Source of the DNA: an uncultured bacterium
Lineage (GTDB): Bacteria; Omnitrophota; Omnitrophia; Omnitrophales; Abzuiibacteriaceae
DNA: 64,000 nucleotides
Reading direction: 5' to 3'
Assembly: GCA_964387845.1 (NCBI GenBank)
Contig: CAYLXA010000003.1
Location: 1-64,000 of the forward strand
Shown: piece after piece, positions 10,980 to 60,737 of the stretch
How positions within the stretch are numbered: the stretch's first letter is position 1
Layout: each line of letters begins with the position of its first letter
Made by a program: the position numbers and the translations under genes
Notes under the pieces: generated by a model
Told to the model about the DNA's origin: nothing
The model's input: only the letters and a program-made list of their open reading frames with translations
Databases searched by the model: none

Positions 10980-11068
10980 GCTTCAAGCTTCAAGCTTCAG
11001 GCTTCAAGATTAAAGAATTGTGCCGCTTTAAGCTTGCGGCATGCAGCTTGTAGCTGCTTAACTTGCGA
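10980..11068. repeat. Intergenic inverted-repeat element, family B. The left arm is tandem GCTTCAAG/CAAGCnn heptamers, the loop is ~17 nt, and the right arm is tandem AAGCTTGnnGC units.
   Basis: Read directly. The same family occurs at 32806-32848/33218-33263 and 60664-60737. Confidence 0.7.
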
Positions 11069-11135
11069 ATGAGCTTCATATTATATAGCGATGGGTTCTT
11101 TTTGTCCATATAGCCATTTTTATCTGGAAATTGGG

Positions 11136-12026
11136 CTAGTAAACTTCAACCAAGAGGCGCTTTTCGGAGCGGAGAAATTCGGCAAAACCCTCGTTATTGA
11201 GGTCTTTGCCGATCATGTTGAGGAGCGGATAAATGCCGTCTTCCATTCCCTTTAAACCGCAAAGATAAATCAGACTGTTGCTCCGAGAGAAAATTTTGCT
11301 CAGGAGTTCGCGGTCTTCATACATTCTAACTTGTACGTACATTTTGTTTTGGCGGGTCGTGATAGCATTCGGATACGGGTTTGTCTCTTCGCGGCTGATG
11401 GCAATCGAATAATGAAAATTCGGATATTTCGCAGCGAGTGCTTTAAATTCGTTGTCATAAAGAATCGTGTCTTTGTAAGGAACGCCCAGGTAAAGGCAGA
11501 CTTTCTTTTTATAACCGGCTTCGAACATTTCAATCAACATGCCGCGAAACGGTGCAATGCCGGTTCCGGTTGCAACAAAGACGATATCGCGGTCCAGAAA
11601 ATCATCCGGCAATACAAAATGTTTTCCGGCGGGGCCCGTCATTTTGACTTGATCGTTCGGTTTTAAATCACAAAGGTAGTTGCTCGCAACACCCGGCTGG
11701 CGTTTTTGGCCGGTCTTGGGATTATCAAAAAAGTGCCGGACAACACAAATAGAAACCGTTTTGCCATCGCCTTTGTCACCTTTGCGCGTTGACGCAATGG
11801 AATAAAGCCTGAGGCCGTTTGGTTTTCCGCTGCGGGAATCAACCCCCGGCGGGATGATGCCCACGCTTTGGCCTGGAACGTACGGGTAATTGCCGTCAAA
11901 GCGGATGACAATGTGGCGCACATCATTGTCAAGCCCGTGCGCCGCGCCTGTAATCCGTTTGTTGTCAACAATCGTGCCGGACAACGGATTATTTAGTTTG
12001 TAAATATTAACTGCTAGTTCGGTCAT
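11136..12026 (-). CDS. Ferredoxin-NADP+ reductase (plant-type FNR family)
   Basis: RLYSIAS FAD-binding motif, GTGIAPFR NADP-binding motif, CLYLG. Confidence 0.85.
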   Translation of the reverse strand: MTELAVNIYKLNNPLSGTIVDNKRITGAAHGLDNDVRHIVIRFDGNYPYVPGQSVGIIPPGVDSRSGKPNGLRLYSIASTRKGDKGDGKTVSICVVRHFFDNPKTGQKRQPGVASNYLCDLKPNDQVKMTGPAGKHFVLPDDFLDRDIVFVATGTGIAPFRGMLIEMFEAGYKKKVCLYLGVPYKDTILYDNEFKALAAKYPNFHYSIAISREETNPYPNAITTRQNKMYVQVRMYEDRELLSKIFSRSNSLIYLCGLKGMEDGIYPLLNMIGKDLNNEGFAEFLRSEKRLLVEVY

Positions 12027-12065
12027 GATTCTCCTATAACAACCCGATCATTTATTCATTGGTAA

Positions 12066-12120
12066 TCATGACCGCCCTTGCGCTATTAGTTGTATATAAA
12101 AGCGCAACGGGCACTCATAT
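12066..12120. promoter_or_regulatory. Conserved palindromic element E, copy 2: CCGCCCTTGCGCT - ATTAGTTGTATATAAA - AGCGCAACGGGC. It ends 40 nt upstream of the FNR start.
   Basis: Paralogous to 8444-8498, with the same spacing to the downstream start codon. Confidence 0.5.
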
Positions 12121-12138
12121 GACTCCATTTTAAAGACG

Positions 12139-12213
12139 GACTTCGAACATCGAACCTAGAACATCATTTTCAGTATTGACCTACGTTCGAAGTTCCAGGT
12201 TCGAGGTTCGATA
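12139..12213. repeat. Inverted-repeat element, family A (TCGAAC heptamer arms), copy 2
   Basis: Arms 12139-12165 and 12183-12213 are read directly. Confidence 0.7.
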
Positions 12214-12234
12214 CTTTCTGCTATAATCCGCATT

Positions 12235-12624
12235 ATGAATGAAATTCGCCTCTTGCAATTCCTTATTTGTAAAGAATTTCGCGAAGAAGGTCAAGATGCT
12301 TATTGCGCGGGGTTTGTGCGCAGCAATCTCTATGTTCCCGAGTTTCCATTTTACCTGACCGACCTGCATGCTGTCACCTGCTGGCAGAAAGACGGGCGGT
12401 TTCACAAAGAAGTGATCGAATACGCCACCGATTACGGCGAATCGGTCAAAAGCCCGCATATGGACATTGAGCCGGCCAAAGGGAGTGTAATTTTCCGCTG
12501 GCACGCGCATCAATTTCCGACTGATTTCGCGATTGAGCGGCCGACCACTCTGACGGTTCGCGTGATTCTCGACTGGGAAGTCAAATTTGAATCACAGCTC
12601 ATGATTGAGAAACGACCGGCATAA
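12235..12624 (+). CDS. Hypothetical protein (129 aa) bracketed by two family-A elements
   Basis: A TATAAT at 12222-12227 lies only 7 nt before the ATG, suggesting a leaderless transcript. No recognisable domain. Confidence 0.4.
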   Translation: MNEIRLLQFLICKEFREEGQDAYCAGFVRSNLYVPEFPFYLTDLHAVTCWQKDGRFHKEVIEYATDYGESVKSPHMDIEPAKGSVIFRWHAHQFPTDFAIERPTTLTVRVILDWEVKFESQLMIEKRPA

Positions 12625-12630
12625 TTACGA

Positions 12631-12716
12631 GCGAACATCGAACTTCGGACATCGAACATCGTATCAATTATTGGTTCAATTCTCGATGTTCGAGGTTCTA
12701 TGTTTGAAGTCCGATA
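12631..12716. repeat. Inverted-repeat element, family A, copy 3
   Basis: Arms 12631-12661 (CGAACATCGAACTTCGGACATCGAACATC) and 12683-12716 are read directly. Confidence 0.7.
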
Positions 12717-12913
12717 TTTTTTAGCAACTGAACTCATGCTGAAGCCGCGTCGCCGGAAACCAAACCATTCCTTTGCTGCATTCCCCACCGCAATCATCGA
12801 AAGCGCTTTTTGGCATGAAATAAAAGATATCGCCTAGAACATAAAAAGGCGAGAAAAGGTAGAATTTCATACAACCAAAGAAAAGTAAATATACAAAGAT
12901 ATATCGGTAGCTT

Positions 12914-15508
12914 TTACGCATGAGTCCCATTAAAGCAAAAACCATTGCTTTTGTCATCTACAGAAACATGCACCGTATCGCCATCCTTGTAATCACCGGA
13001 AAGAAGCCGTAAAGCCAGCGGATCTTGGATGCCGCGCTGAATCAAGCGACGTAAGGGTCTTGCGCCATATTCAGGGTCATATCCCTCAAATGCTAGTTTG
13101 TCTTTTGCTTTCTTTTCAATCTTGATATGAAGATTTCGAGCTGCCAGTTTTCGATCAAGCTCTAAAAGTTCGAGTTCCACAATTTTTTGAATATCACTTG
13201 AAGATAATTTATTGAAAATTACTATTTCATCCAAGCGATTTAAGAATTCCGGTTTGAAATTCTTCTTCAACTCTTCCTGAATATTTTTCCTCAAAGATTC
13301 CTTAGACTCGACATCATTGAAATAATGTGAGCCGATGTTAGAAGTCATAATAATAACCGTGTTTTTAAAATTGACAACACGGCCTTGGCCGTCCGTTAAG
13401 CGGCCGTCTTCTAAAATTTGAAGCAGCACGTTAAATACATCCGGATGCGCTTTTTCGATTTCATCAAACAGAATCACCGAGTAAGGTCTCCGGCGAACTC
13501 GCTCTGTTAATTGTCCGCCTTCTTCGTAACCTACATATCCGGGCGGAGCGCCGATCAAACGGCTTGTGGAATGCTTTTCCATATATTCTGACATATCGAT
13601 CCGAATGAGCGCATTTTCATCGTCAAACAAAAACCACGCCAAACTCTTTGCTAAATAAGTTTTCCCGACTCCGGTCGGGCCCAAGAAAATGAACGACCCA
13701 ATTGGACGATTTATATCGGAAAGCCCTGAGCGTGAGCGGCGAACTGCATTTGAAATGAGCGAGATTGCCTCATCCTGACCGACCACGCGGGCTTGAAGCT
13801 GCTTTTCCATATGAACCAGTTTCTCGACCTCGCCTTGCATTAATTTTGAAACAGGAATGCCTGTCCATTTAGACACAATTTCCGCAATATCTTCTTCGCC
13901 AACTTCTTCTTGAAGCATTTTGCTTTTCTTTTGAATTTCCTGAAATTTTTTATTCTCGACTTCTAGCTTTTTTTCAAACTCGCGAAGTCTACCGTACCTA
14001 ATTTCGGCCACTTTATCCAACTTTCCTTCCTTTTCAAGGCGCGACTCTTCAAGTTTTGCTTTTTCAATATCTTCTTTAATTCGTCGAATTGAATCAATTG
14101 CCGCTTTTTCATTACTCCATCGAAGTTTCATTTCATCGCGTCTCGACTTAAGCTCGGAAAGTTCTTCCTCCAATTTTTTACGGCGATCCCCGGATGCTTT
14201 ATCGCTTTCTTTCTTCAATGCTTGTTTTTCAATTTCAAACTGCATGATCTTGCGCTCAAGAATATCGATTTCGGTCGGAAGGCTGTCGATCTCAATACGT
14301 AACTTGGAGGCAGCTTCATCAATCAGGTCAATCGCTTTGTCCGGCAAAAATCTATCAGTAATATAGCGATGAGAAAGTGTCGCGGCAGCAATAAGCGCAT
14401 CATCCTTTACTCGAACGCCATGAAAGATTTCGTAACGTTCTTTCAGGCCGCGCAAGATTGCGATCGTATCTTCAACCGTAGGTTCGCCGATAAAAATGGG
14501 CTGAAATCTGCGTTCAAGCGCTTTGTCTTTTTCAATATATTTTCTGTATTCATCAAGTGTGGTCGCGCCAATACAGCGAAGTTCTCCGCGTGCAAGCGCA
14601 GGCTTTAACATGTTGGAAGCATCGACAGCCCCTTCAGCTCCGCCGGCGCCAACAATAGTATGAAGTTCGTCAATAAAAAGAACGATTTCGCCGGCCTTCG
14701 ATTCAACTTCTTTTAAAACCGCTTTTAAGCGATCTTCAAATTCTCCTCGATATTTCGAACCGGCAACCATAGCTCCGATGTCGAGCGCTATAATTCGTTT
14801 ATTTTTAAGAAGTGTTGGGATGTCTCCATCTGCGATTCTTTTTGCAAGACCTTCTACTATCGCTGTTTTTCCGGTTCCCGGGTCTCCGATCAAGACCGGA
14901 TTATTTTTAGTACGGCGTGAAAGCACTTGAATTGCGCGACGAATTTCTGAGTCGCGGCCTATCACTGGATCCAACTTACCTTGCCTGGCAAGCTGTGTAA
15001 GGTCGCGGCCATATTTTTCAAGTGCTTGATATTTCTGTTCGGGATTTTGATCTGAGACACGATGAACGCCGCGCACTTCTTTCAATGCCTTCAGAATCGC
15101 ATTTCTTTCGATACCATGCTTTTTGAGAAGGGGCTGAAGCTTTGAATCTTTCTCTTGAGAAATCGCGAGAAGCAGATGTTCGATGCTTACATAATCATCC
15201 TTTAAAACTTCCGCTTCTCTCGCGGTTTGATCCAATAACTTCTTCAAATGCGGCGAAAAAAATGCTTGAGTGTCATTGCCCTCTACTTTTGGATTTGAAT
15301 CTATTAAACTTTGAATATCGTTCTGAAGCAAACCAACATTGGTGCCCAATTTTTGAAGAATGGGCACAGCAATTGAATCTTCGATTGTCAAAAGCGCCAG
15401 GAAAAGATGTTCCACTCGCACTTCTTGATTGCCGTGATTTCTTGCAATCTCAAGTGATGCTTGAACACTTTCCTGCGCTTTTAGTGTTAGCTTGTCCATC
15501 CTGAACAT
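12914..15508 (-). CDS. clpB: ATP-dependent chaperone ClpB (Hsp104 family disaggregase)
   Basis: Two AAA+ modules (GDPGTGKT and GPTGVGKT Walker A), a long coiled-coil middle domain and an N-terminal Clp_N repeat. 864 aa. Confidence 0.95.
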
Positions 15509-15523
15509 ATTACCCTCTTTCTA

Positions 15524-16288
15524 TTACTTCACTTCGATTTTTGGTTTTTCTTTCTTCTCTTCTGCCTGCGGAACTATTTTTGCAATTTTTACCACTAAGA
15601 CGCCATTTTTATATTCTGCGCTAATGTCATCCTGATTGGCATCTGCCGGCAGCGGAACAGCCCGGCTGAAAGACCCAAAACTTCGTTCGGCACGATAGAA
15701 ATTGCCGTGCTCGTCGGTTTCTTCCGACTCGGTTTTTCGGTTACCTGAAATTACAAGGAAATGATCCCTTACTTCTACATTAATTTGATCTTTTTCCATT
15801 CCCGGCAAATCAATTTTCACAACATAATGTGTATTTGATTCATCGACATCGATTTCCGGCTCATAAAAGGTGTGCTGTTCGAAAAAACCAGGTTTGGAAA
15901 AACTTGTCGCACGACTGAAACTATCGCGAAACATCCGGTTCATACGCTGCTGAATTTGCTCCATTTCATAAAATGGGTCATACTGATCAAAGCTAGATTG
16001 AAAGCTGAATGTAAATGGGTCAAAACTGCCAGCCGCAGAAGCACCGCTCAGCGCCTGCTGATGGCTGCGTATTTTTTCAGCTTTTGAATCAAATTTTTTA
16101 TCAGCTTTTCTTAGATCATGCGTTTTGTAATTTTTACTTTTTTGATCAGATTGAATTTTCCAAAGGTAAGCTGACTGGGTAATCAATCCAATGGTTAGGA
16201 TAATGACTAAGATGGTAAGTAACTTATTGCTCTTCATGATAAAATCCTCCTTACTTAAAACTAGGCCACCGGAACCCAAAGCCGGCAT
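15524..16288 (-). CDS. Hsp20/alpha-crystallin family small heat-shock protein with an N-terminal membrane anchor
   Basis: ACD core: YVVKIDLPGM...FYRAERSFGSFSRAVPLP...AEYKNGVLVVKI. Confidence 0.8.
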   Translation of the reverse strand: MPALGSGGLVLSKEDFIMKSNKLLTILVIILTIGLITQSAYLWKIQSDQKSKNYKTHDLRKADKKFDSKAEKIRSHQQALSGASAAGSFDPFTFSFQSSFDQYDPFYEMEQIQQRMNRMFRDSFSRATSFSKPGFFEQHTFYEPEIDVDESNTHYVVKIDLPGMEKDQINVEVRDHFLVISGNRKTESEETDEHGNFYRAERSFGSFSRAVPLPADANQDDISAEYKNGVLVVKIAKIVPQAEEKKEKPKIEVK

Positions 16289-16305
16289 TCCGATGGCCTA
16301 ACTAT

Positions 16306-16773: not shown

Positions 16774-16933
16774 GGTGAATCCTCCTTTTTAAAATGGATG
16801 TTTGTTGATTCCAATTCTATAATTGCATCTAAAATGCCAAAATCTATAAATTTTATAAGTTATTTATTTATAATGACTTACAATAATTTAAAGGATTTTG
16901 ATTTTTTGTACACTTGTATCAATCTGACACAAA

Positions 16934-16957: not shown

Positions 16958-16961
16958 CGAG

Positions 16962-17764: not shown

Positions 17765-17795
17765 AATACTAGCCGAGGAAAATTAAATTGTCTAC

Positions 17796-24547: not shown

Positions 24548-25576
24548 ATGCGTGCGGTTATTTTCAAAGAACACGGCGGGCTTGAAAAATTAATTTATAC
24601 GGAAGTGCCGCGCCCAAAACCGGGGCCGCATGAAATTTTGATTAAAGTCAAAGCTTGTGCGCTCAACTACCTTGATATTTGGACACGGCTCGGGATTCCG
24701 GGGCTTCAGATTTCAATGCCGCATATTTCAGGGTGTGATATCGCCGGTGAAATCGCGGAGGTCGGCGCACACGTAAAAAATTTCAAAATCGGTAAACGGG
24801 CCGTTATTGCTCCGGGATTTACACCGCCAAACGATCCCCTTAAAAATACCGAATGGGATTCGCTTTCGGATCATTATAAAATTCTCGGCTTTCAAGTAGA
24901 CGGCGGCTATGCCGAATACGTCAAAGTCCCCGCCGAAAATGTATTCCCCGTTTCGAACCGCTTAAGTTTTGAAGAATGGGCGGCGATCCCTCTTGTTTCG
25001 CTAACTGTGTGGCACATGCTGGTAACGCGCGCTCAGCTTAAGAAAAACGAAACCGTTCTGATTCATGCGGCAGGAAGCGGCGTCGGAAGTGCTGCAATTC
25101 AACTGGCAAAGCATCTCGGTGCAAAAATCATTACGACTGTCGGAAATGACCAGAAAAAAACACGTGCCATTGAAATCGGTGCCAATTGGGTGATTAATTA
25201 CAACAAAACCGATTTTGCCAAAGAAGTCCGTGGAATTACCAAAAATAAAGGCGTCGATGTCGTTCTGGAACATATTGGGCCCGATACTTTCACGAAAAGT
25301 CTTGTCTGTCTTGCCAAAAAAGGGCGCCTCGTGACTTGCGGTGTGACGAGCGGCCCGAGCGTGCAGCTGGATTTGCGTTTTCTCTTCAGCCGCCAATTTT
25401 CGATTATGGGCTGCTATATGGGAGGCCTGAAAGAATTTAAGGAAGTTTTGAAACTGGTAGAAGCCGGAAAATTGAAACCTACTATTGATAAAATCTTTCC
25501 GCTCAAAGAAGCCCGCCGCGCTCAGGAGCGCATGCTTTCCCGCCAGAATTTCGGAAAGATTGTTCTCGTTCCGTAG
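24548..25576 (+). CDS. Zn-dependent alcohol dehydrogenase / quinone oxidoreductase (MDR superfamily)
   Basis: AAGSGVGSAAIQLAK Rossmann motif and a GroES-like N-domain. Confidence 0.85.
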   Translation: MRAVIFKEHGGLEKLIYTEVPRPKPGPHEILIKVKACALNYLDIWTRLGIPGLQISMPHISGCDIAGEIAEVGAHVKNFKIGKRAVIAPGFTPPNDPLKNTEWDSLSDHYKILGFQVDGGYAEYVKVPAENVFPVSNRLSFEEWAAIPLVSLTVWHMLVTRAQLKKNETVLIHAAGSGVGSAAIQLAKHLGAKIITTVGNDQKKTRAIEIGANWVINYNKTDFAKEVRGITKNKGVDVVLEHIGPDTFTKSLVCLAKKGRLVTCGVTSGPSVQLDLRFLFSRQFSIMGCYMGGLKEFKEVLKLVEAGKLKPTIDKIFPLKEARRAQERMLSRQNFGKIVLVP

Positions 25577-25668
25577 CGTCTAGCGGATAGCGCATAGCGT
25601 TTAGGAACGAGTGGTTTTTGAATGCTTTTCTATTCGCTATACGCTAAACGCTACCCGCTAAAAGCGAA
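25574..25668. repeat. Inverted-repeat element, family C. The left arm is TAGCGnn heptamers, the loop is ~25 nt, and the right arm is nnCGCTA heptamers. It lies between convergent genes.
   Basis: Read directly. A related arm is present at the window end (63966-64000). Confidence 0.65.
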
Positions 25669-30857: not shown

Positions 30858-30944
30858 GTTTAATTCCTCCTTGTAATCCCCGTAAACCACGGGGCAAACC
30901 TCACGCGAAATTCGCGTTAAGGTGCTTATTTATTAAGCCAGTTT

Positions 30945-31400
30945 TCAGATAGCAGATGTCAGAAAACAGAAGTCAGACATAAAATTTTTTCCAACTTTTA
31001 ATGAGCGAATAAAGCATTGCATTGACTTCATCATATTTTGCATCCAATTTTTCGTGGACGGATTTTTCGATATAGCCACAATCAAGCGAGAAATCCAACC
31101 AACCTCTTGTCTCTTCGCTTGAACCAAAAGCATCGTTCAAATGCCGAATAAACAATTGTTCGTACTTTCTTTTTGCATACCCTTCTCGGATATTGATAGC
31201 TACCGATCTAGAGGATCTTCTGATTTGGTCAGTTAAAGAGTAGGTTTCTGGTTTGGGAAACTTTTTTGTGATTTCGAAAACGTCCAATGCAAGATTATAA
31301 GCTATGTTATAGACCTTTAAATCTTTGACAATTTTTATCACACGCTTAGTTCCTAAACTTTAACCTTCTGATTTCTGACTTCAGTCCTCCGACTTCTGTA
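30945..31400. mobile_element. IVS-like inverted-repeat element of about 456 bp carrying a four-helix-bundle gene. Arms are CAGAAnn/TTCTGAn heptamer arrays at 30945-30979 and 31365-31400.
   Basis: Arms read directly. The ORF sits in the loop. Confidence 0.6.
30973..31341 (-). CDS. Four-helix-bundle protein (23S rRNA intervening-sequence protein / Avd-like family)
   Basis: N-terminus YNIAYNLALDVFEITKKFPK...QIRRSSRSVAINIREGYAKR is typical of the family. GTG start with an AGGAA Shine-Dalgarno. Confidence 0.8.
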   Translation of the reverse strand: MIKIVKDLKVYNIAYNLALDVFEITKKFPKPETYSLTDQIRRSSRSVAINIREGYAKRKYEQLFIRHLNDAFGSSEETRGWLDFSLDCGYIEKSVHEKLDAKYDEVNAMLYSLIKSWKKFYV

Positions 31401-32805: not shown

Positions 32806-33263
32806 TTCAAGCTCCAAGCTACAAGCTTCAAGCCACAGGCTTCAAGCCTTTAACAACAGTTTCTCTAAAGCGATATAATTCCTTGCCTAGCTTTTCATAT
32901 TTGCTCATTACTGCATTAAAAACAGATTCATCTTTTAAAGATTGAGTATCAAACAATAATTGCAAATGTTCTTTGGTTTCATCGCACGATGCGATTGCAT
33001 ATGTCAAATATCGTATAAACTCTTGTTGATATTGTTTTCGACCAAATCCTTCGACAATTGCCGCCGGAATTGATTTTGCTGATCGCCTTATTTGGCTACC
33101 TTCTTCATACATTTCTATCTTTGGCAATTTTTGAATCGTCATACTATGAACTTCAACTGCTAATTCATGAGCCAATTTGTATACCCTTAAATCCTTATAA
33201 CTTTGCTTTATCATTTACGCTTTAAGCTTTAAGCCTGAAGCTTGCAGCTTGTAGCCTGAAACC
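32806..33263. mobile_element. IVS-like inverted-repeat element of about 458 bp carrying a four-helix-bundle gene. Arms are family-B CAAGCnn heptamers at 32806-32848 and 33218-33263.
   Basis: Arms read directly. The element exactly fills the pilB-pilC junction. Confidence 0.6.
32828..33214 (-). CDS. Four-helix-bundle protein (23S rRNA IVS protein / Avd-like family), second copy
   Basis: N-terminus YKLAHELAVEVHSMTIQKLPK...QIRRSAKSIPAAIVEGFGRK. The last 7 codons and the stop lie inside the repeat arm. Confidence 0.8.
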   Translation of the reverse strand: MIKQSYKDLRVYKLAHELAVEVHSMTIQKLPKIEMYEEGSQIRRSAKSIPAAIVEGFGRKQYQQEFIRYLTYAIASCDETKEHLQLLFDTQSLKDESVFNAVMSKYEKLGKELYRFRETVVKGLKPVA

Positions 33264-33264: not shown

Positions 33265-35448
33265 CTATTCATACGCCACACTCAAAACTTCCTCTAATGT
33301 TGTAACACCCTCTTCAACTTTCCGGACACCGCTGTCGAAAAGAGTTGCTATGCCGGCTTTTTTCTCAGCTTCCCTAAGCAGCTCGATCGGCTCATTGCGG
33401 GCAATCACGCTGCGCATTTCTTCCGTAATCGGCATGATTTCATAAATCGCAACACGGCCCCAGTAACCGATGTCGCGGCAATCTTTGCATCCTTTGGCTT
33501 TGTATATTTTTCGGACATTCAGCCGGAAATCCTTCATTTCTTTATCAGACGCTTCATAGGGCTCTTTACAGCTTGGGCACAATTTACGGACTAGGCGCTG
33601 CGCACCGATTAGAATCAAACTCGAAGCCACTAGATAAGGCTTCACACCAATATCAATGAGCCGCGTGACGGCCGTAGGCGCGTCATTCGTGTGCAACGTG
33701 CTCAAGACCAAATGACCCGTGAGTGCCGCACGCACACAAACATCGGCTGTTTCTTCATCGCGGACTTCGCCGACGAGGATAATGTCGGGATCTTGACGCA
33801 AAAATGCGCGCAAACCGGTTGCAAACGTAAGGCCAATGTCGGGCTTTACCTGCACCTGACCGACACCCTGCATTTGAAATTCGACCGGGTCTTCGATGGT
33901 TAAAATATTCGTTTCGGTAGATTTGACGAAATCAATTGCAGCATAAAGCGTCGTCGTTTTTCCGCTCCCGGTCGGGCCCGTGATATAAATAAGGCCATAC
34001 GGTTTTTCAACTGCATCCTGAAAAGCTTTAAGCTGTTTTTCATCAAACCCCAGGTCTTTGAGGCCTTTTAAGCCAGCACCTTTATCCAAAAGACGCATCA
34101 CGACCCGCTCTCCGAACACCACCGGAACCGTTGAAACACGGACGTCGATATTGCGGCTTTTGTAGGTAATTGAAAACGAGCCGTCCTGCGGGATTCTTTT
34201 TTCGGCGATATCCAACTTAGATAAAATTTTGACGCGTGAGACAACTGCCAAATGCATCTGTTTCGGGGGCGGCGGAAGTTCATACAAAATTCCATCAAGC
34301 CGGTAACGGACAATAAGGCGGTCTTCAAACGGTTCAATGTGAATATCGCTCGCACGGTCTTCGATGGCTTTTTTGAGAAGCAAATCGACAAATCGAATAA
34401 CGGGCGGCTGGTCGGCCTCAGCCATGCGTTCGGCAAGCATGACGCGGCCTTCTGTAACACCGCGGGCAGCTGACTTAGTTTCGGCCTCCATTTGCTTGCC
34501 GGTCACGACTTCTTCTAGCTGAATATCGCCGTAGAAGCTTTGGAGCTTTGCGCGCAAATCATTCGGCGTTGCGAGTACCGGAATAATTTCAAGGCCTGTT
34601 ATTTTTTTAAGATCGTCTAAAAGCAAAAGATCAAAAGGTTTCGCAAACGCGACTGTCAAATTTTTTCCGGACCTGAAAAGCGGAAGCGCAAACCTCTCCT
34701 TTGCAATTTTCTCCGGGAAAATGTCTTTTAACCTTTGGTCAGCCCGGGGATTAAGCTGATCACCCACCATAACCGGCAAATTAAGCTGTTGCGACAAAGC
34801 TACCATAATATCCGTCTCTCGCCGGACAAAACGCATGGTGACTAAGATTTCACCGAGCGGGGCACCTGTCTTTTTTTGATCTGCGAGCGCCTGTTGAAGC
34901 TGATCTTCTGAAATCAAACCCTGGCGGACTAAAATCTCGCCGAGCTTGAGCTTGCGCATGCTGGTTTTAACATCGGCAGACGCGTTTGGCTTATCACTTT
35001 CCTTAAATTCGGTTTTATAAAATGCGTCGATTTTAGCTTCTAAATCCTGTTTGTGCGCAAGCACAGGATCAATATCAAGACTGGTTGCTTTTTTGATATC
35101 GGAAAGAACGTCCGGCGTAAAATTATATGAGAAAGCAACGGTTAGTTTTCCTTCGGTTTTTGAAATGGGCAGCGCTAAATATTTCCGCGCCACAGCTTCG
35201 GGAAAAGCGTACTTGAGTTTCTGATCAGCGTGAGGGATCAGCTGATCACCGATTAAAATCTGAAGTTTATAAATTTGTGAGACAGCAACTACCAGGTCTG
35301 TTTCGCGGCGGATAAAATTGTTCTTGAGGAGAATATCGCCAATCGGCGCCTTACTGTCCTTTTGCTCTGACAGTGCCCGAGACAACTGCTCGGCACTCAT
35401 CAGGCCTTGGCTTACTAAAACATCGCCAAGTGAAGATGGGTCACTCAT
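33265..35448 (-). CDS. pilB: Type IV pilus assembly ATPase PilB (GspE family) with two tandem N-terminal MshEN/T2SSE_N domains
   Basis: Walker A GPTGSGKT, Asp box, His box, and a CxxC...CxxC tetracysteine motif. 727 aa. Confidence 0.9.
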   Translation of the reverse strand: MSDPSSLGDVLVSQGLMSAEQLSRALSEQKDSKAPIGDILLKNNFIRRETDLVVAVSQIYKLQILIGDQLIPHADQKLKYAFPEAVARKYLALPISKTEGKLTVAFSYNFTPDVLSDIKKATSLDIDPVLAHKQDLEAKIDAFYKTEFKESDKPNASADVKTSMRKLKLGEILVRQGLISEDQLQQALADQKKTGAPLGEILVTMRFVRRETDIMVALSQQLNLPVMVGDQLNPRADQRLKDIFPEKIAKERFALPLFRSGKNLTVAFAKPFDLLLLDDLKKITGLEIIPVLATPNDLRAKLQSFYGDIQLEEVVTGKQMEAETKSAARGVTEGRVMLAERMAEADQPPVIRFVDLLLKKAIEDRASDIHIEPFEDRLIVRYRLDGILYELPPPPKQMHLAVVSRVKILSKLDIAEKRIPQDGSFSITYKSRNIDVRVSTVPVVFGERVVMRLLDKGAGLKGLKDLGFDEKQLKAFQDAVEKPYGLIYITGPTGSGKTTTLYAAIDFVKSTETNILTIEDPVEFQMQGVGQVQVKPDIGLTFATGLRAFLRQDPDIILVGEVRDEETADVCVRAALTGHLVLSTLHTNDAPTAVTRLIDIGVKPYLVASSLILIGAQRLVRKLCPSCKEPYEASDKEMKDFRLNVRKIYKAKGCKDCRDIGYWGRVAIYEIMPITEEMRSVIARNEPIELLREAEKKAGIATLFDSGVRKVEEGVTTLEEVLSVAYE

Positions 35449-51016: not shown

Positions 51017-51017
51017 T

Positions 51018-53822: not shown

Positions 53823-55583
53823 TCAAAATGCCTTCTGGACTTTAAAGTCTTTTTCTTCGAGCGCACGTATTTTAAGCAGATCCGGTATCTTGAAATGGTC
53901 CGGTACGTTATTTATCATAGACTCTATTCTGGGTAAATAAAATTCGGCGGGCTCTAAAATGGTTACATTGTCTTTTTTCTTATATATTTTCTTAATGTTC
54001 CTGATAACAACTAATTTTTCTTCCTGGCTCAACAATTTCCACCATGCAACCGTTCCAATCTTAAAATCTTTTCGGATATAAATGCGATTATCGCCCAATT
54101 CGATATCGATTGTATAATTTTCATCAATTTCCCGATTGACCAGGTTTTGAGCATTTTCGTTCAGATATACGATACCCTTTTTGGGCATCAAAATAAGGGC
54201 GGGCTTCTTCTCAAAAATTTCTCTTACCATGCCTTCTTGAGTGACTTTTTTTCCTTCAAAAGCGCTAATAAACGCTTCTTTTTCAAGGTTTGATGGGTGT
54301 GCTTGTTTAGTGGGAATCAAAGAATCTGTAAACCAATAAAGAATATGATGAGTAGCAAAGAAAACATAACGACCTGATAAATTGTACGTCTTCTCCAAAT
54401 ACTGATTCAAAACATTAACGCGGTCCGGCCTGTCCAATTGTTCGTACTTAATTCTCAATGGATACAACGTCCATAAAAAACTAGAAGCAACCATAAGTGC
54501 AATAATCCATTTCCATCTACCTAAACTAAAACCGTAAGCAATCAATAAACCGGCTGTGATAGACAGCATGGGTAATAGCGGAATTAAATAATGGCCATAT
54601 CCCCATCCCGTTGTGAGTATGGAAAGCAGCATTGAAATAAAAAATATTAAAAAAATTCGGGTGGTTTTTCTCTGCTCGTCATTAAAAACTTGGCTTAAAC
54701 ATCCCAGCAAAAACCCGGCCAGCGAAGCAAGCCAGATAAAAAAACGGTGCGAAACAATCGACATTTTAAATAAATCTATCGTCCGCTCAACTCTTCCCAT
54801 GCTGATTCCCAGAAATGATTTCTCGCTCTGTGCTTCAATGTAAACTAAACAAGCATCAATCATTGTTCTTTTCAGCGTATCGAATTCATGATTTGCAAAA
54901 TAAACAGCCGAGACTGCAAAAATAGGAAATAGATACCCAAGAAAAAACGACAGGCTGTCAGAAAGCGCTCTTTTTTTATCCTGACGAAAATGCCTTAGTA
55001 AAACAACCAGAAATGCTACGAGTACAAAATAAACGATATTGTGCCGAACCAAAGTTGCGATCGATAAAAAAACACCGGCCCAAAATACATGGCTTTTCTT
55101 TTTCCCGGTTATTAAAAACCACAAAAAAAGGCTGATTGGGACCGACGCGATGTGTTCACCCATGGTGGATTGACCGGAATGAAACGTGCTGGAATAAATA
55201 ATATGGATAACACCCGCCCAAAATCCCGCTAAGCGCCCATAAATTCTTTTTCCAAGGAGATAGATAATAAATGCGGTTGACAAGATACACAAAAGGCCCA
55301 AAACGCGTATCGCAATGATGCTTTTCCCGAATAAAAGGATGGTCAGCGCAAATGGCAGGTATAAAAGAGGCGGATAGCCACACCAATAATTCGTGAGCGG
55401 CAGATAACCGTTCACCACATCTTGGGCTATTAGAATGCTTGTGCTTTCATCCCAATCAATTTCATATGGAAAAAAATCCGGTAAACGGATGAGAAGAGCA
55501 AGGCAAAGAAAGAAAATGAGGGCCCAGAATTTATTGTCGATTAAGCGGTCAAATTTGTCTAACTTGACGCTAGGCGCTTGCAT
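53823..55583 (-). CDS. GT-C fold membrane glycosyltransferase (ArnT/PMT, GT39/GT83-like)
   Basis: At least 11 TM helices and a C-terminal periplasmic domain. Clustered with DegT, GNAT and GT2 genes. Confidence 0.6.
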   Translation of the reverse strand: MQAPSVKLDKFDRLIDNKFWALIFFLCLALLIRLPDFFPYEIDWDESTSILIAQDVVNGYLPLTNYWCGYPPLLYLPFALTILLFGKSIIAIRVLGLLCILSTAFIIYLLGKRIYGRLAGFWAGVIHIIYSSTFHSGQSTMGEHIASVPISLFLWFLITGKKKSHVFWAGVFLSIATLVRHNIVYFVLVAFLVVLLRHFRQDKKRALSDSLSFFLGYLFPIFAVSAVYFANHEFDTLKRTMIDACLVYIEAQSEKSFLGISMGRVERTIDLFKMSIVSHRFFIWLASLAGFLLGCLSQVFNDEQRKTTRIFLIFFISMLLSILTTGWGYGHYLIPLLPMLSITAGLLIAYGFSLGRWKWIIALMVASSFLWTLYPLRIKYEQLDRPDRVNVLNQYLEKTYNLSGRYVFFATHHILYWFTDSLIPTKQAHPSNLEKEAFISAFEGKKVTQEGMVREIFEKKPALILMPKKGIVYLNENAQNLVNREIDENYTIDIELGDNRIYIRKDFKIGTVAWWKLLSQEEKLVVIRNIKKIYKKKDNVTILEPAEFYLPRIESMINNVPDHFKIPDLLKIRALEEKDFKVQKAF

Positions 55584-55601
55584 TATCGGATGATTATTGA
55601 A

Positions 55602-56138
55602 CTAACTATTTGTAATTTTTCCACGCTTAGGATTGAGCAGTTCGTTGATATCCAGCATCATTTCTTCTCGGCTGTAGGCGGCAATATCCAAAATTTGTGT
55701 ATCCATCCTGATCGCATCTTCGGGGCATGCTTCCACGCAAAACCCGCAATAAACGCATTTTCCGAGATCGATGTCGAAACTTGAGGGGCGCTTTTCAATA
55801 TTGGGATCGGGATGCTCTTCGGCAACAATATAAATACAGCGTGCCGGACACACGGTTTCACACATCATGCAAGCTACGCAGCGCGGGCTTCCGTCGTCGC
55901 GCTTGGTCAAGCGGTGGCGCGTCCGTGAGCGGTGAGCAAGCGGCGTTTGCTGATCGGGATACTGAACCGTTACAGAAGCCGGAATATTTCTGAATAATCC
56001 GAAAAGATGAAGAATGTGAAGCGTAAAATTCTTTAAGAAATGGCGCGTCGTAATCCAAAGCCCAAAAAAAATCGCGGGCAGATAAATCCGCTGCCAAAAT
56101 GTCATTTTTGGTTGATGAATGACTTTTGTTTTAATCAT
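55602..56138 (-). CDS. nuoI: NADH-quinone oxidoreductase subunit I
   Basis: Two CxxCxxCxxxCP motifs. Confidence 0.9.
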   Translation of the reverse strand: MIKTKVIHQPKMTFWQRIYLPAIFFGLWITTRHFLKNFTLHILHLFGLFRNIPASVTVQYPDQQTPLAHRSRTRHRLTKRDDGSPRCVACMMCETVCPARCIYIVAEEHPDPNIEKRPSSFDIDLGKCVYCGFCVEACPEDAIRMDTQILDIAAYSREEMMLDINELLNPKRGKITNS

Positions 56139-57250
56139 CGCCAGTTTTCCAAGATTAAAATGATAACGGCCGTTACAAAAACATTCGCAAGTGCAATCGG
56201 GAAAATGATTTTCCAGCCGAGCCGGAGCAACTGGTCATACCGGAACCTGGGCAAAGTCCAGCGGATCATCATGAACAGCCAGCAGAAAAAGAAAACTTTC
56301 AGGCTGAAACTCGCGATTTGTAGGATAGAAACCGTCATGGAGGATAGCAGCCAGGTTTCGCCCCAGGGAAAATAAAATCCGTCCGAAAAAAGCCACGGTA
56401 CCTGCCAGCCGCCGAAGAAAAGTGTGGTCGCGAGGCACGCAATCATGATGGTTTCCACAAAATCCGTGAGGAAAAACATGCCGAATTTCATGCCGCTATA
56501 TTCCACAAAGTAGCCGACAATTTCCGATTCACCTTCCGGCACATCAAACGGCACGCGCTTCGTTTCCGCAATACCGGCCGCTAAAAATAGGAAAAATCCG
56601 AGCGGCTGAATCACAAACCCCCAATTCGGGATCCAACCATTTAAAAAATAACCGCCCTGCGCTTTCACTAATTCCTGAAGATTGAGTGTTTCATACGCCA
56701 TAACGAGACCCATGATCGTGAGACCCATCGCAATTTCGTAAGAAAGCATCTGGCTTGAAGCCCTGAGACCGCCCAGGAAAGAATAATTATTGTTGGACGA
56801 AAAACCGGCCAAAATAACGCCGTAAACGCCCATCGATGTCATCGCAAAAATATAGAGCAGTGCGACATTCAAATCCGCAACCTGCAAATTAACGGTTCGC
56901 CCTGCGATTTCAATCGTGTTGCCGAACGGAATCGCTGCAAAACCAACGAGCGCGAAGAAAACGGAAAGAAGAGGCGCGAGCGTGAATAAAAATTTGTTGG
57001 CGGTCGGCGGAATATAATCCTCTTTCGTGAACATTTTGATCATATCCGCAATGGGATGAAAAAGCCCGAAAAGCGTAACCCCAAAAATTGATGCGCGGTT
57101 TGCGCCAACCCGGTCCTGAATGACCGCGCTTTGCTTTCGCTCAAGCCATGTATGAAGCGCGGCTAAATTGAGAACTCCGCCCAAAACAATCGCAGATAAA
57201 ATGGAGGGAACTAAAATCGTTTCGATCATAAACACATGGTGGTTTCGCAT
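56135..57250 (-). CDS. nuoH: NADH-quinone oxidoreductase subunit H
   Basis: ND1-family membrane subunit. Confidence 0.9.
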   Translation of the reverse strand: MRNHHVFMIETILVPSILSAIVLGGVLNLAALHTWLERKQSAVIQDRVGANRASIFGVTLFGLFHPIADMIKMFTKEDYIPPTANKFLFTLAPLLSVFFALVGFAAIPFGNTIEIAGRTVNLQVADLNVALLYIFAMTSMGVYGVILAGFSSNNNYSFLGGLRASSQMLSYEIAMGLTIMGLVMAYETLNLQELVKAQGGYFLNGWIPNWGFVIQPLGFFLFLAAGIAETKRVPFDVPEGESEIVGYFVEYSGMKFGMFFLTDFVETIMIACLATTLFFGGWQVPWLFSDGFYFPWGETWLLSSMTVSILQIASFSLKVFFFCWLFMMIRWTLPRFRYDQLLRLGWKIIFPIALANVFVTAVIILILENWR

Positions 57251-58827
57251 TCGGCGTGCTTTTTAGCATCCAGCACCTTCCACACACCGCTCATTTTGCT
57301 ATTCATCTCTTCAAAAACACTCTTTTCGTTCGCATACTGCCATTCAAAGCCAAATTTTCCGGCCAAAATAGAGAGAATTTCCAAATCCTTTCTCGCATTT
57401 CCGATTGGTGTAAGCGCTTGTGAAAAGTGCTGCGTTTTTCCCTCAAAATTTGTGAAAGTTCCGCTCAATTCCGCATAAGCAGCGCTCGGCAGCACATAAT
57501 CACAAGCTTCAGAGGTTAAGCTGGTGTTCATCCCATGAAAAATGGTGAGTTCGATTTTCTCAAAAATCTCGGAAATCTTGGGGTCTTTCACGAGCGTCAG
57601 AAAATCCTGGCCGAATAAGTAAAGTGCTTTGAGCTTTCCCTGCTTCGCAAGCTCAACCACTTTCTCGATTTTCGCACCTGATTCTTTAAAGCCCAGAAGT
57701 TCGGCGCCTTTTCGGTTTGGATTTTTATCGGCGCGAATCAGAAAATCGTCTTCGTAGCCTTCTTTGTTTGGCGATAACAAATAAACATGAGGAAGTTTTA
57801 ATTCTTCGGAAAACAATTTTTTCGCCAAATATAACGATTCGTTCGAAAGTTGAGGCGACAATAGAACCGCTGCAGCACGCGGATCTTCTTTTACGGCATC
57901 AATCCACTTTGTTGAAACTTCAACCAAAGCATCATCCCAATCCAAAACTTCGGGTACTTTGTTGATCCTGCGCGACGGCTCCAAAATACGGTCTTGATCG
58001 ATCCACTTGTAACCATAGCGGCCTTCATCACAAATCCACCACTGGTTGATTTCCGGGTTGTAGCGCGGCTTCAGGCGCATGAGACGTTCGCCGTGTCCGT
58101 GATGTTTGCGTTCGGTGTTGACTTCCATCGAAATCGAACAGCCGCGTGAACAGCCGCTGCAAATTGAATTGGCTTTTCTCAAATACCAAACCCGCACTTT
58201 AAACCTGAAATCGCGGTCTGTGAGCGCGCCGACCGGACAAATGTCCACAACATTTCCCGAATACTTGTTATCAAGCTCTTTTCCCGGATAAAGGCCGATT
58301 TCCGCATGATCACCGCGGTTAAAGATTCCAAAGTCGTTTGTTTTCGTAATCTCATCCGAATAACGCACGCAGCGCGAACACAAAATACAGCGTTCGGAAT
58401 CTAACATCACGTTGGGCCCGATCGGAACCGCTTTTTTCTTTTTTACCTTTGATTCGTTCAGCTTCGAATCATAAAGCCCATGCTTCATGTAATAATCTTG
58501 AAGCCCGCACTCACCCGCCTGATCGCACACGGGACAATCCAAAGGATGATTAACAAGCAGAAATTCTAACACGTGCTCGCGCATGAGCTTGACTTTCTCG
58601 GTGCTGGTTTTCACCACCATGCCGTCTGTGCATTCAATGTGGCAGGAAATTTGAAGTTTCGGGGTTTTCTCGATTTCAACTAAACACATGCGGCAATTGC
58701 CCGCAATGCTCAAACCAGGATGATAGCAATAATGAGGGATGTCGATGCCAAGCTGCTTGGCGGCCTGGATGACGCGCGTTCCCTTTTCGACTGTGACTTC
58801 TTTTCCGTCAATGGTTAATGTTGGCAT
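57226..58827 (-). CDS. nuoG: NADH-quinone oxidoreductase subunit G (short form, 533 aa)
   Basis: N-terminal 2Fe-2S and 4Fe-4S Cys clusters. Confidence 0.85.
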   Translation of the reverse strand: MPTLTIDGKEVTVEKGTRVIQAAKQLGIDIPHYCYHPGLSIAGNCRMCLVEIEKTPKLQISCHIECTDGMVVKTSTEKVKLMREHVLEFLLVNHPLDCPVCDQAGECGLQDYYMKHGLYDSKLNESKVKKKKAVPIGPNVMLDSERCILCSRCVRYSDEITKTNDFGIFNRGDHAEIGLYPGKELDNKYSGNVVDICPVGALTDRDFRFKVRVWYLRKANSICSGCSRGCSISMEVNTERKHHGHGERLMRLKPRYNPEINQWWICDEGRYGYKWIDQDRILEPSRRINKVPEVLDWDDALVEVSTKWIDAVKEDPRAAAVLLSPQLSNESLYLAKKLFSEELKLPHVYLLSPNKEGYEDDFLIRADKNPNRKGAELLGFKESGAKIEKVVELAKQGKLKALYLFGQDFLTLVKDPKISEIFEKIELTIFHGMNTSLTSEACDYVLPSAAYAELSGTFTNFEGKTQHFSQALTPIGNARKDLEILSILAGKFGFEWQYANEKSVFEEMNSKMSGVWKVLDAKKHAECETTMCL

Positions 58828-60118
58828 ATTCGGACTTTTCTAAATCGCATTTTTTTTCTTTGATATGGTACTCAAATTCCGAACGAAATTTTTTCAAATA
58901 ACTCAAAAGCGGCATTTGAGCGCCGTCTGCAAGCGCGCAGATCGTCGTGCCGCCCATAAAACTCCCGATATCGATCACATTCTCAACATCTGAAGACCGC
59001 CCGTTCCCGTCTAGCACGCGTTTGAAAATCCTGGAAATCCATCCTGTCCCTTCGCGGCACGGTGAACACTGGCCGCAAGATTCGTGCGCGTAAAAATTCA
59101 TAGTGACCGAAAGTGCTTTGACCATGCAGACCGTTTCATCAAACACAACCACGCCGCCTGAGCCGCCCATGGAACCGATTGCTCTCAGAGAATCAAAATC
59201 CATTTTCACGTCAATTTCAGATGGCGCAAGAATTGAAGCGGACAATCCGCCTGGCACAACGGCCTTCAGTTTGTGGCCTTTGCGGACACCGCCGGCATCT
59301 TCAATCAGCTGCCGGAGCGGAATTCCGAGCGGGCGCTCGTAAACACCCGGACGCTCAACGTGGCCGCTCACGCTAAAAAGACGCATGCCGCCGTTCTTAT
59401 CGGAGCCGACATTCGCGAACCACTCGGGGCCTTTTTTCAAAATGAACGGCAAATAAGAAAGTGTTTCGACGTTATTAATTACGGTCGGACAATTAAAAAG
59501 CCCGATCACGGCAGGAAAAGGCGGTTTTAAACGCGGCAATCCTTTTTTTCCTTCCAAAGATTCTAAAAGCCCCGTTTCTTCGCCGCAAATGTAGGCGCCG
59601 GCGCCTCGGTGAACCACTACGTCCAAATCAAACCCGGTTCCAAAAATATTTTTCCCGAGGTAATTTTTAGAAACCGCTTCTTCAACTGCTTTCACCATTC
59701 GTTCATATGAAATTTGATATTCACCGCGGATATAAATGTAAGCTTTGTGAATACCGACCGCATATGCGCAAAGCAAAATTCCTTCAAGCAAAAGATGCGG
59801 CGCAAAATTCATAATATATTTATCTTTGAATGTGCCCGGCTCGCCTTCATCGGCGTTGACCACCAAATAAATCGGCTTTCCGGTATTGCGCGGCACAAAA
59901 CTCCATTTCATGCCGCAGCCAAAACCGGCGCCGCCGAGCCCGCGAAGGTTTGATTTTTTCACGATTGCTTCGACTTCCTCCGGCTTTACTTCTTTCAACA
60001 CACGTTTCGCCGTTTCCCAGCCGCCGTTTTCAAGATAAACCGGCAGTGTGTGAGAATTTTGTATGTCGAAGAACTTTGAAATTAATTTTTCCATTATTGC
60101 CTTAAATTCAAATCTCAA
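58808..60118 (-). CDS. nuoF: NADH-quinone oxidoreductase subunit F
   Basis: GLGGAGFGCGMKW FMN site and a C-terminal 4Fe-4S motif. Confidence 0.9.
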   Translation of the reverse strand: MRFEFKAIMEKLISKFFDIQNSHTLPVYLENGGWETAKRVLKEVKPEEVEAIVKKSNLRGLGGAGFGCGMKWSFVPRNTGKPIYLVVNADEGEPGTFKDKYIMNFAPHLLLEGILLCAYAVGIHKAYIYIRGEYQISYERMVKAVEEAVSKNYLGKNIFGTGFDLDVVVHRGAGAYICGEETGLLESLEGKKGLPRLKPPFPAVIGLFNCPTVINNVETLSYLPFILKKGPEWFANVGSDKNGGMRLFSVSGHVERPGVYERPLGIPLRQLIEDAGGVRKGHKLKAVVPGGLSASILAPSEIDVKMDFDSLRAIGSMGGSGGVVVFDETVCMVKALSVTMNFYAHESCGQCSPCREGTGWISRIFKRVLDGNGRSSDVENVIDIGSFMGGTTICALADGAQMPLLSYLKKFRSEFEYHIKEKKCDLEKSEYANINH

Positions 60119-60168
60119 ATTTCAAATATCAAAACGAGTTTTTGAATTTTGATATTTTAATTTTGAAT

Positions 60169-60648
60169 TTACTTACATTCTCTCAATATTTCATCTACTT
60201 TCTCAACTGTGAGCGGGCCAACATAATCTTTATTCACCATCATCATCGGCGCAATTTCGCAAGCACCGAGACATTCAACCGTCTCGAGCCCGAATTTTCC
60301 GTCCGGCGTTTGCTGGCCAACGTCAACACCGAGCCGTTCTTTCAAATAATGAACAATTTTGTCGGAACCCAGAAGCGAACATGTAAGCGTTCGGCAAACA
60401 CTAAGCTGATTTTTTGCACAAGGCTTTGAATGAAACAGGGTGTAAAACGTCATCACTTCCCTGACATCGACAACGGGAACTTCCAAAAGCACGGCAACTT
60501 CCTGCTCTGCCGCCTGCGAGATAAATCCGTAAGTTTCCTGAACGAGCCGCAAAACGGGCAGCATCGCCGCGCGTTTTTGCGGATAATTCGCAAGAATTTT
60601 TTCAGCTTTCTTTTTGAGTTCAGAGTTTAGTATTTCATTTTGTATCAT
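60169..60648 (-). CDS. nuoE: NADH-quinone oxidoreductase subunit E
   Basis: Thioredoxin-like 2Fe-2S fold with a four-Cys pattern. Confidence 0.8.
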   Translation of the reverse strand: MIQNEILNSELKKKAEKILANYPQKRAAMLPVLRLVQETYGFISQAAEQEVAVLLEVPVVDVREVMTFYTLFHSKPCAKNQLSVCRTLTCSLLGSDKIVHYLKERLGVDVGQQTPDGKFGLETVECLGACEIAPMMMVNKDYVGPLTVEKVDEILRECK

Positions 60649-60663
60649 CGCGATATATCCATT

Positions 60664-60737
60664 GCTGCAAGCTACAGGCTACAAGCTTCAAGCTTAATCA
60701 ATTGAAGCCTGAAGCTTGTGGCTTGCGGCCTGAAGCT
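60664..60737. repeat. Inverted-repeat element, family B (CAAGCTT heptamer arms with an 8-nt loop), between nuoE and nuoD
   Basis: Arms 60664-60694 and 60703-60737. The right arm abuts the nuoD stop codon. Confidence 0.7.

Follow-up and report, generated by a model that had tools for sequence, protein, structure and literature searches.

Inverted heptad arrays, empty or loaded with a four-helix-bundle gene, form one class of candidate mobile cassettes in transcribed spacers

The first 64,000 nucleotides (nt) of contig CAYLXA010000003.1 (GenBank assembly GCA_964387845.1), from an uncultured bacterium of the order Omnitrophales, were analyzed here and are referred to as the window. They harbor short elements composed of inverted paired arrays of degenerate seven-nucleotide units (heptads), which either close into nearly empty hairpins or enclose an open reading frame (ORF) for a four-helix-bundle (4HB) protein. 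Both forms appeared to belong to a single class, and the same architecture was encountered around 4HB genes of many other genomes. On balance, we are somewhat inclined to regard these elements as widespread compact mobile cassettes, mRNA-resident counterparts of the S23p-type intervening sequences (IVSs) of 23S rRNA, with ORF-less derivatives.

Three loci, designated family B, are inverted paired arrays with about five degenerate heptads in each arm, the 5' arm being built of GCTnCAr units and the 3' arm of the complementary ones. Originally predicted as three elements with an AAGCTT core, they are real and lie about where they had been placed (10980-11059, 32806-33262 and 60664-60737). The core pattern of the family matched the window 32 times versus 3.5 +/- 2.0 times in shuffled sequences, and only isolated hits fell outside the three loci. 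Profile matches also bore out the predicted neighbors, namely ferredoxin-NADP reductase and trxA, pilB and pilC, and nuoD and nuoE. All three elements are described in transcript sense, which corresponds to the minus strand. As delimited by heptad scan and arm comparison, the trx copy is an empty hairpin with its 3' arm at 10980-11014 (four GCTTCAA units followed by GATTAAA), a loop of about 10 nt (11015-11024) and its 5' arm at 11025-11059. The nuo copy, delimited by sequence and folding, is likewise empty, with a 3' arm (60664-60695), a 9-nt loop (60696-60704) and a 5' arm (60705-60736) that starts 3 nt after the nuoD stop codon (60740-60742).

The copy between pilB and pilC is loaded. Its 5' arm (33217-33262) starts about 6 nt after the pilB stop codon (33265-33267) and ends at the ATG of an ORF of 128 amino acids (aa; 32828-33214), whose final residues and TGA stop are encoded by the 3' arm (32806-32850). 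This ORF is indeed the four-helix-bundle gene that had been predicted in the loop, as it matched PF05635 (E=1.8e-27) and TIGR02436, the "23S rRNA intervening sequence protein" family (E=3e-26). Its closest solved relative is XCC0516 (2GSC), and an exact-sequence lookup of the protein itself returned no record. The downstream gene pilC starts at ATG 32804, not at TTG 32831; 8 nt ahead of this ATG, the final units of the 3' arm supply a GGAG.

Arms of loaded and empty B copies were 72-82% identical over 30-45 nt, versus at most 55% identity, or no alignment at all, with the arms of other heptad families from the window. The trx and pil 5' arms have in common the unit order GCTACAA-GCTGCAw-...-GCTTAAA-GCG and the inner end GCTTAAAGCG. 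The arms are thus related rather than unrelated and, given the shared unit and the common order of units followed by their reverse complement ([X][rcX]), the idea that short hairpins and ORF-carrying IVS-like elements are one class was upheld. The nuo copy folded considerably better than shuffled sequences (z -5.6/-5.9). The sequence TCAATTGATTAA, which spans the inner end of its 5' arm, its loop and the start of its 3' arm (~60693-60704), was identical in relative L104 (loci from other genomes carry L numbers), present in the nuoC/nuoD hairpin of L083 and partial in the trx copy. It was rejected as a conserved loop motif of empty elements, since other empty hairpins are devoid of it. None of the terminator-like sites of the window overlaps a B copy and no T-run follows the B stems. 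An Rfam scan of the window detected neither a family nor rRNA, and PADLOC gave no match.

The three copies had been placed inside operons, and this held unequally. The nuo hairpin, claimed to be necessarily part of the polycistronic nuo mRNA, is likely co-transcribed with the nuo genes, as judged from its position 3 nt past the nuoD stop and from the lack of a T-run. The operon location of the trx copy is doubtful: this copy may sit in a 5' untranslated region (UTR), because a sigma-70-like sequence (TGGACA-17-TATAAT, 11/12 positions, by consensus match alone) occurs just upstream of it at 11080-11108 on the minus strand. The nuoD gene itself (60740-62074) encodes 444 aa versus about 385 in the profile; the split of its profile match into two stretches points to an insertion of about 60 residues, shared with relative L083.

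When genomes were scanned with aligned 4HB proteins as the query, 80 loci were retrieved, whose proteins were 52-71% identical to the window ORF. They were found in Omnitrophota, Planctomycetota, Nitrospirota, Desulfobacterota, Verrucomicrobiota, WOR-3, Bacteroidota and Chloroflexota, as well as on contigs labelled Methanophagales, Halobacteriota and Nitrosotalea. Assignment of the latter contigs to archaea rests on record titles, and Pfam matches of the neighboring genes in these loci were not diagnostic of taxon. Sufficient flanking sequence was available for 88 4HB gene entries; two duplicate a sampled contig, leaving 86 distinct genes from about 15 bacterial phyla and from archaeal-labelled contigs. 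In about 74 of these 86 genes, both flanks had their highest-scoring lag at period 7. Both flanks reached at least 15/21 at period 7 in 64 of the 88 entries, versus 3.1% of random 135-nt windows from the same loci. Inverted heptad arrays thus flank nearly all of the 86 genes and ORF-less hairpins of the same unit types were found beside 4HB cassettes, so that the one-class idea extends well beyond the window.

The layout of these loci was constant while their units varied from element to element (GATrCAG, GATACTC, GTCGCAG, GCGTnnT, GATGCCG and others). A universal heptad core was sought and discarded: GATnCAn is the commonest, and units range as far as TCAAATn. Units of eight nt were encountered on both flanks of three distinct distant 4HB paralogs, and on the upstream flank only at L016 5737. 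A link between period and 4HB subfamily stays a hint, because plasmid examples of one broad subfamily mix periods 7 and 8. Cultured carriers of the design include Calothrix, Nostoc punctiforme, Nostoc edaphicum, Geminocystis, Picosynechococcus and Riemerella; 4HB genes of Nostoc and Calothrix are flanked by GGGTGTA or GGGAGTA arrays. The Picosynechococcus plasmid (L096) carries at 1470-1900 a 4HB cassette with 8-nt units (GGAGATAA / TTATCTCC) between cas10/cmr2 and cmr3, an arrangement earlier read as Cas-associated.

Heptad arrays between pseudopilin genes were read as false N-terminal extensions (e.g. MHHESCIMNRVSCILRRESCIV...) in the ORF lists of L021 (1896-3630) and L037 (813-2559). Translated heptad arrays are a likely source of mis-called starts in annotations. 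In L037, the loops of empty hairpins between such genes (1455-1631 and 2375-2559) hold a nested small element, CACCCCCCTCAATCCCCCCTTACCAAGGGGGGAATTAAAGGGGGG, once or twice, so that one hairpin encloses another.

Cassettes are tightly embedded among host genes. The 4HB gene pointed the same way as the gene upstream in 82 of 85 cases and as the gene downstream in 75 of 80. Median gaps to these neighbors were 67 nt upstream and 60 nt downstream, which equals the arm length. The stop codon of the upstream gene lies at the start of the 5' arm (median ~0 nt before it), the 4HB gene starts a median 12 nt past this arm and stops a median ~12 nt inside the 3' arm, and the downstream gene starts at the 3'-arm end, with a stop/start overlap (ATGA) in 12 of 50 cases. 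Arms had a median of 6.4 units (127 arrays), and their two most variable unit phases were 3 nt apart in 68 of the 127 arrays versus 42 expected.

Seven genomes of Planctomycetota keep a cassette at one and the same junction. The gene upstream of it is conserved; the one downstream starts with MKHIISALVENKPGVLA and has its Shine-Dalgarno sequence and start incorporated in the cassette's 3' arm. The two genes putatively encode the large and small subunits of acetolactate synthase (ilv-like), as read without a domain test. In one of these genomes (L071 3744-3975) the 5' array has grown to about 33 units, versus about 5-9 in the orthologs of the six others.

Units of about 450 nt comprising arm, ORF and arm were 90-92% identical among L026 (labelled Methanophagales), L020 (Methanobacteriota) and L038 (Nitrosotalea), whereas their flanks were unrelated and homology ended at the outer array ends. 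The same was observed for L072 and L081, two Planctomycetota loci with cassettes of the same 90-92% identity in unrelated flanks. From such identity in unrelated surroundings, we infer that arms and ORF move as one unit.

Orthologous junctions displayed a corresponding turnover. Between pilB and pilC, where the window carries its B cassette, L097 (PilC 89% identical) harbors a different cassette at the same nucleotide position, with a 4HB protein 34% identical, arms of GTTTAAT units and a B-like remnant, TTGGTAGCTT. A third cassette occupies the junction in L100 and L101 (PilC 63%), while the junction is bare in L098/L099 (84%) and L102/L103 (63%), with spacers of 17 nt and 3 nt. The nuo operon was compared among relatives with NuoD 93-95% identical. 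Its nuoC/nuoD junction is bare in the window, contains an empty hairpin with CGT/AGCGT units in L083 and is loaded, with TAGCGTT units, in L105. Presence/absence polymorphism was likewise found at nuoD/nuoE, where the B hairpin is present in the window and in L104 and the junction is bare in L083 and L105. In L107 (NuoE 86% identical), the nuoD/nuoE spacer (245-330) holds two unrelated, non-heptad GC-rich hairpins, GGGCGACC...GGTCGCCC and GGGCTGGC...GTCAGCCC, through which the nuoE ORF call runs on.

Decaying copies were also encountered. The 4HB ORF at L001 12919-13113 is disrupted by frameshift with its length preserved, and L027 (2768-3044) kept its arms around only an N-terminal 4HB remnant (E=1.7e-6). 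The truncated element of L027 (2766-3046) sits exactly where L026 (1145-3042) has 1.9 kb with ABC-2 transporter genes; the two loci are 94% identical nearby and the rearrangement breakpoint falls at the cassette.

Four other unit types, represented by seven heptad elements, accompany family B in the window. A period-7 lag scan uncovered 17 runs at a threshold of 15/21, versus 0-3 for each other period from 4 to 11. Family A (CGAACnT) comprises three empty hairpins (6105-6189, 12135-12215 and 12627-12710), and family C (TAGCGnn) one empty hairpin between convergent genes (25571-25668). Family D (CAGAnnn) supplies the second loaded cassette (30943-31400, minus strand; arms 30943-30980 and 31354-31400), whose ORF of 122 aa (30973-31341) matched PF05635 (E=4.9e-33) and TIGR02436 (E=1e-31). 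This cassette separates pilC from the downstream pilin gene, within whose 5' UTR it falls, so that pilC is flanked by the two loaded cassettes, B and D. A single empty hairpin of family E (TCAAATn) occurs in the nuoE/nuoF spacer (60102-60170, minus strand) and is present only in the window among the compared relatives, being absent in L083, L104, L105 and L107. Finally, a 3' arm of family C, clipped by the window end (63965-64000, minus strand), directly precedes the ATG of a tetratricopeptide repeat (TPR) gene (63479-63964); it displays the same four units as the 3' arm of the nuoC/nuoD cassette of L105, at a different site.

An ORF of 129 aa on the plus strand (12235-12624) was tried as a third cargo, as it fits exactly between two family A hairpins and is opposite to its neighbors. 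Having no match in Pfam, PADLOC or PHROGs and no 4HB similarity, it was considered an ordinary gene. In L097 (4778-5187), the closest relative, the pilC-pilin spacer contains about 200 nt of unrelated, heptad-free extra sequence where the window has the D cassette, surrounded by a conserved pilin promoter and 5' UTR motif (GGCTTAATAAATAAGCAC). Elsewhere in the window, a 78-nt tandem repeat (2135-2474; 4.4 copies, 71% matches) inside an ORF of 1939 aa (7-5826) probably encodes a repeated 26-residue module.

Some arrays are more conserved than their surroundings. The nuoD/nuoE spacers of the window and L104 were identical at 86 of 91 positions (5 differences), the hairpin itself differing at 3 of 74, whereas nuoD and nuoE on either side matched at only 73-74% of their third codon positions. 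By this comparison, the nuo empty copy is under purifying selection or kept uniform (homogenized) by another process. The 5' array was also identical in L065 and L075, whose flanks are about 80% identical.

Pairing of the arms was examined in 88 stems, whose best arm pairings totaled 2347 Watson-Crick pairs versus 633 mismatches; the window copy reached 24 of 28 Watson-Crick pairs in its best local pairing. Since the unit phases of the arms are variable, predicted stems consist of runs of two to six pairs, broken about every 7 nt. A presumed "polarity" of empty hairpins relative to host transcription proved void, because an inverted repeat is identical when read on either strand; the test reveals only the common [X][rcX] order of empty and loaded elements.

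These features could be accommodated by the following scheme. A full copy would consist of about six degenerate heptads, a 4HB gene of about 120 residues and the same heptads inverted, and would insert in sense orientation into a transcribed spacer, be it the gap between two genes of like direction or a 5' UTR. Judging by its orientation, which matches that of the host genes packed tightly around it, the cassette apparently lacks a promoter; its expression probably comes from the host transcript. The outer units of the 3' arm would often supply the Shine-Dalgarno sequence of the downstream host gene or overlap its start, which would keep the host operon working. Empty hairpins would be internal-deletion derivatives or non-autonomous copies of the cassette class. 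In the transcript, the two arms would form a long stem interrupted by a mismatch roughly every 7 nt. Binding of this stem by a pentameric 4HB protein is the molecular role favored here, by analogy with the published complex of the related pentamer Avd with a stem-loop and in view of the periodic mismatches and of the constraint on "variable" positions. In bacteria, the stem may be cut by RNase III as in rRNA IVSs.

Several observations weigh against this scheme. Target-site duplications, which the original prediction suggested looking for, were found neither at the boundaries of element-only homology nor at the bare-versus-filled pilB/pilC junction, where at most a 2-nt ambiguity (TT) was seen. 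No recombinase, transposase or reverse transcriptase was seen adjoining the cassettes. An empty and a loaded element at the same site with clearly orthologous arms were found only approximately: the nuoC/nuoD arms of L083 and L105 have a common phase and CGT/AGCGT core, yet are diverged. Among the 88 stems, mismatches of G-U type (164) and of A-C type (158) were about equally frequent, leaving no sense-strand bias, and transversion mismatches (311) were commoner than either type; selection at the RNA level is therefore not supported by that test. Permutation of units in one arm caused no more than a modest drop in pairing (mean z 1.13, with 17% of elements at p<=0.05), so that arm complementarity comes mainly from the shared heptad core. 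RNA pairing is thus not singled out by the sequence evidence as the selected property, and the trx copy folded no better than shuffled sequences (z ~ -0.9). To our knowledge, most archaea are devoid of RNase III, which, together with the cassettes on archaeal-labelled contigs, argues against this enzyme as a universal partner.

Deviant arrangements point in the same direction. The 4HB genes of L094 and L095 have direct instead of inverted flanking arrays. Those of L094, a Pseudanabaena plasmid, are (AAAGCTA)n and (AAAGCCA)n arrays at 1390-1970, between cas6 and cas4; those of L095 (Gemmatirosa) are composed of 8-nt CTCCTGCC units. In the Nostoc edaphicum plasmid L093 (1400-1900), a cassette with GGGAGTA/CCCTACT arrays lies antisense between two ribonucleotide reductase (nrd) genes and is among the few antisense cases.

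Alternatively, the arrays could be host-side structures, generated in place by 7-nt replication slippage and kept, in the manner of repetitive extragenic palindromic (REP) elements, as mRNA-stabilizing or processing hairpins into which 4HB genes preferentially land as separate small cargo; the arms would then be the target and lie outside the mobile unit. The direct arrays of L094 and L095 resemble a split tandem array, array length shifts between orthologs (about 33 units in L071 versus about 6 in relatives), empty hairpins turn over quickly among relatives, and heptamers have been reported as the most over-represented long repeats of many genomes, with slippage as the proposed cause. We nevertheless consider this origin unlikely. 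Arms travel with the ORF, their 90-92% identity stopping exactly at the outer array ends, and bare pilB/pilC alleles hold no array. The unit type follows the cassette and not the host, with five types in one 64-kb window, while the closest protein relatives in other genomes are accompanied by B-type units. Variability is moreover focused on two phases separated by 3 nt. Ordinary features, whether low-complexity sequence arisen by chance, intrinsic terminators or transposase-linked elements of the REP or miniature inverted-repeat transposable element (MITE) kinds, are hardly credible as an explanation: the loci resemble REP elements and MITEs as short intergenic palindromes, but they are strongly enriched over shuffled sequences, their stems lack a T-run, target-site duplications are missing, the sole associated ORF encodes a 4HB protein and not a transposase, and no Rfam family was matched in the window.

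The sequence constraint described above would suit a functional, non-selfish system, a set of post-transcriptional regulons in which 4HB proteins act in trans by binding RNA or DNA and empty hairpins serve as their operators in other transcripts, with one heptad type per paralog. The conservation of the nuo copy, including its loop and "variable" positions (86/91 versus about 74% at synonymous sites), the identical 5' arrays of L065 and L075, the junction maintained in seven Planctomycetota genomes, the median of 6.4 units per arm and the stem recognition by the Avd pentamer are all compatible with it. Such a regulon remains rather improbable, as junctions of near-identical operons are bare, empty or loaded without pattern and different cassettes replace one another at one site. 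Frameshifted or truncated 4HB ORFs exist (L001 12919-13113, L027), the S23p ORF of Coxiella appears untranslated, and no cognate 4HB gene for families A, C and E is visible within the window. Mobile cassettes with ORF-less derivatives remain our preferred interpretation. As a tentative extension, which we regard as possible without holding it probable, heptad or octad arrays and the pentameric 4HB protein might form one (ribo)nucleoprotein, with about one protomer per repeat contacting the mismatched bases. This would constitute a self-propagating module of transcribed spacers in both prokaryotic domains, ORF-less hairpins being served in trans.

S23p-type rRNA IVSs, the abundant, operon-scattered "four helix bundle protein" genes, including those in cas operons, and the excess of intergenic heptanucleotide repeats in cyanobacteria, Xanthomonas and other bacteria were previously described separately. 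The present evidence ties them into one architecture with a defined unit, defined insertion contexts and bare/empty/loaded polymorphism. Cultured carriers, among them Nostoc punctiforme, Xanthomonas campestris (XCC0516) and Riemerella, make the questions it raises accessible to experiment. For annotation, it matters that heptad arrays lengthen the called ORFs of neighboring genes, that 4HB genes have been taken for Cas-associated genes and that hairpins reside inside core operons such as nuo, pil and ilv-like operons. If true, the nucleoprotein reading would provide one explanation for the heptanucleotide excess (short tandemly repeated repetitive sequences, STRR, and GGGAATC), for the function of PF05635 proteins and for the origin of rRNA IVSs, and the Avd protein of diversity-generating retroelements (DGRs) would be a domesticated relative.

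Within the searchable literature, no paper was found that describes the heptad-array/4HB module as a general element. Parts of it have been reported, such as 4HB genes in cas operons, which were taken to be Cas-associated (PMC3936711), and TAACTGA repeats in Beggiatoaceae (PMC4679880). Like MITEs and their autonomous parents, the present elements comprise a gene-carrying form and short derivatives reduced to the inverted ends; unlike them, they display no transposase domain in the enclosed ORF and no target-site duplication, and their ends consist of tandem units instead of a unique terminal inverted repeat. With REP elements and REPINs they share short imperfect palindromes within transcription units, many copies and presence/absence differences among relatives. 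They differ by their internally periodic arms, by the coexistence of several unrelated unit types and by the linked gene, which encodes a 4HB protein; no REP-associated tyrosine transposase (RAYT) was seen among the ORFs adjoining the elements, the whole window not having been screened for RAYT. Intrinsic terminators differ from the B copies, whose stems are not followed by a T-run.

Heptanucleotide repeats such as the cyanobacterial STRR, GGGAATC of Xanthomonas and GGGGAyT of Nostoc (PMC4692102) are likewise intergenic head-to-tail arrays of 7 nt, often occur as two convergent arrays, lie mostly between co-directional genes and vary in length between relatives. In Xanthomonas campestris, a GGGAATC array is located between bccP (XCC0517) and XCC0516 and overlaps the XCC0516 start (PMC4692102, supplementary table); XCC0516 is the crystallized 4HB protein (2GSC). 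Reports on these repeats treated the arrays as simple repeats or G-quadruplex formers and made no link to 4HB genes. The units of the window, in contrast, are degenerate at two phases and not G-rich, and five types coexist within 64 kb in place of near-perfect copies of one genome-wide unit.

Avd has a homologous four-helix-bundle fold. It forms a pentamer, all five protomers of which contact an 11-bp imperfect RNA stem-loop, with flipped-out bases between protomers. The D-cassette ORF matched Avd models weakly (NF033474, 25.5 bits versus an equivalog cut-off of 80), and the only PHROGs match was a weak one to Avd for this same ORF. Unlike DGRs, the cassettes are adjoined by neither a reverse transcriptase nor a template/variable repeat pair, their neighbors being pilB, pilC and pilin.

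The closest known systems are the S23p-type IVSs of 23S rRNA from Leptospira, Coxiella, Brucella and Haemophilus, which share the PF05635 family, an ORF within complementary termini and a sense orientation within the host transcript. In Coxiella, three to four GACAGAT units, a number that differs between strains, precede the S23p ORF, and the first of them is the site of RNase III cleavage (PMC4990558); these units resemble those of family D (CAGAnnn). The window elements differ by their mRNA context (pilB/pilC, pilin 5' UTR, nuo) as opposed to helix 9, 25 or 45 of the 23S rRNA gene. They also differ by long arrays on both sides and common ORF-less copies, and by the occurrence of the cassette design in archaeal-labelled contigs.

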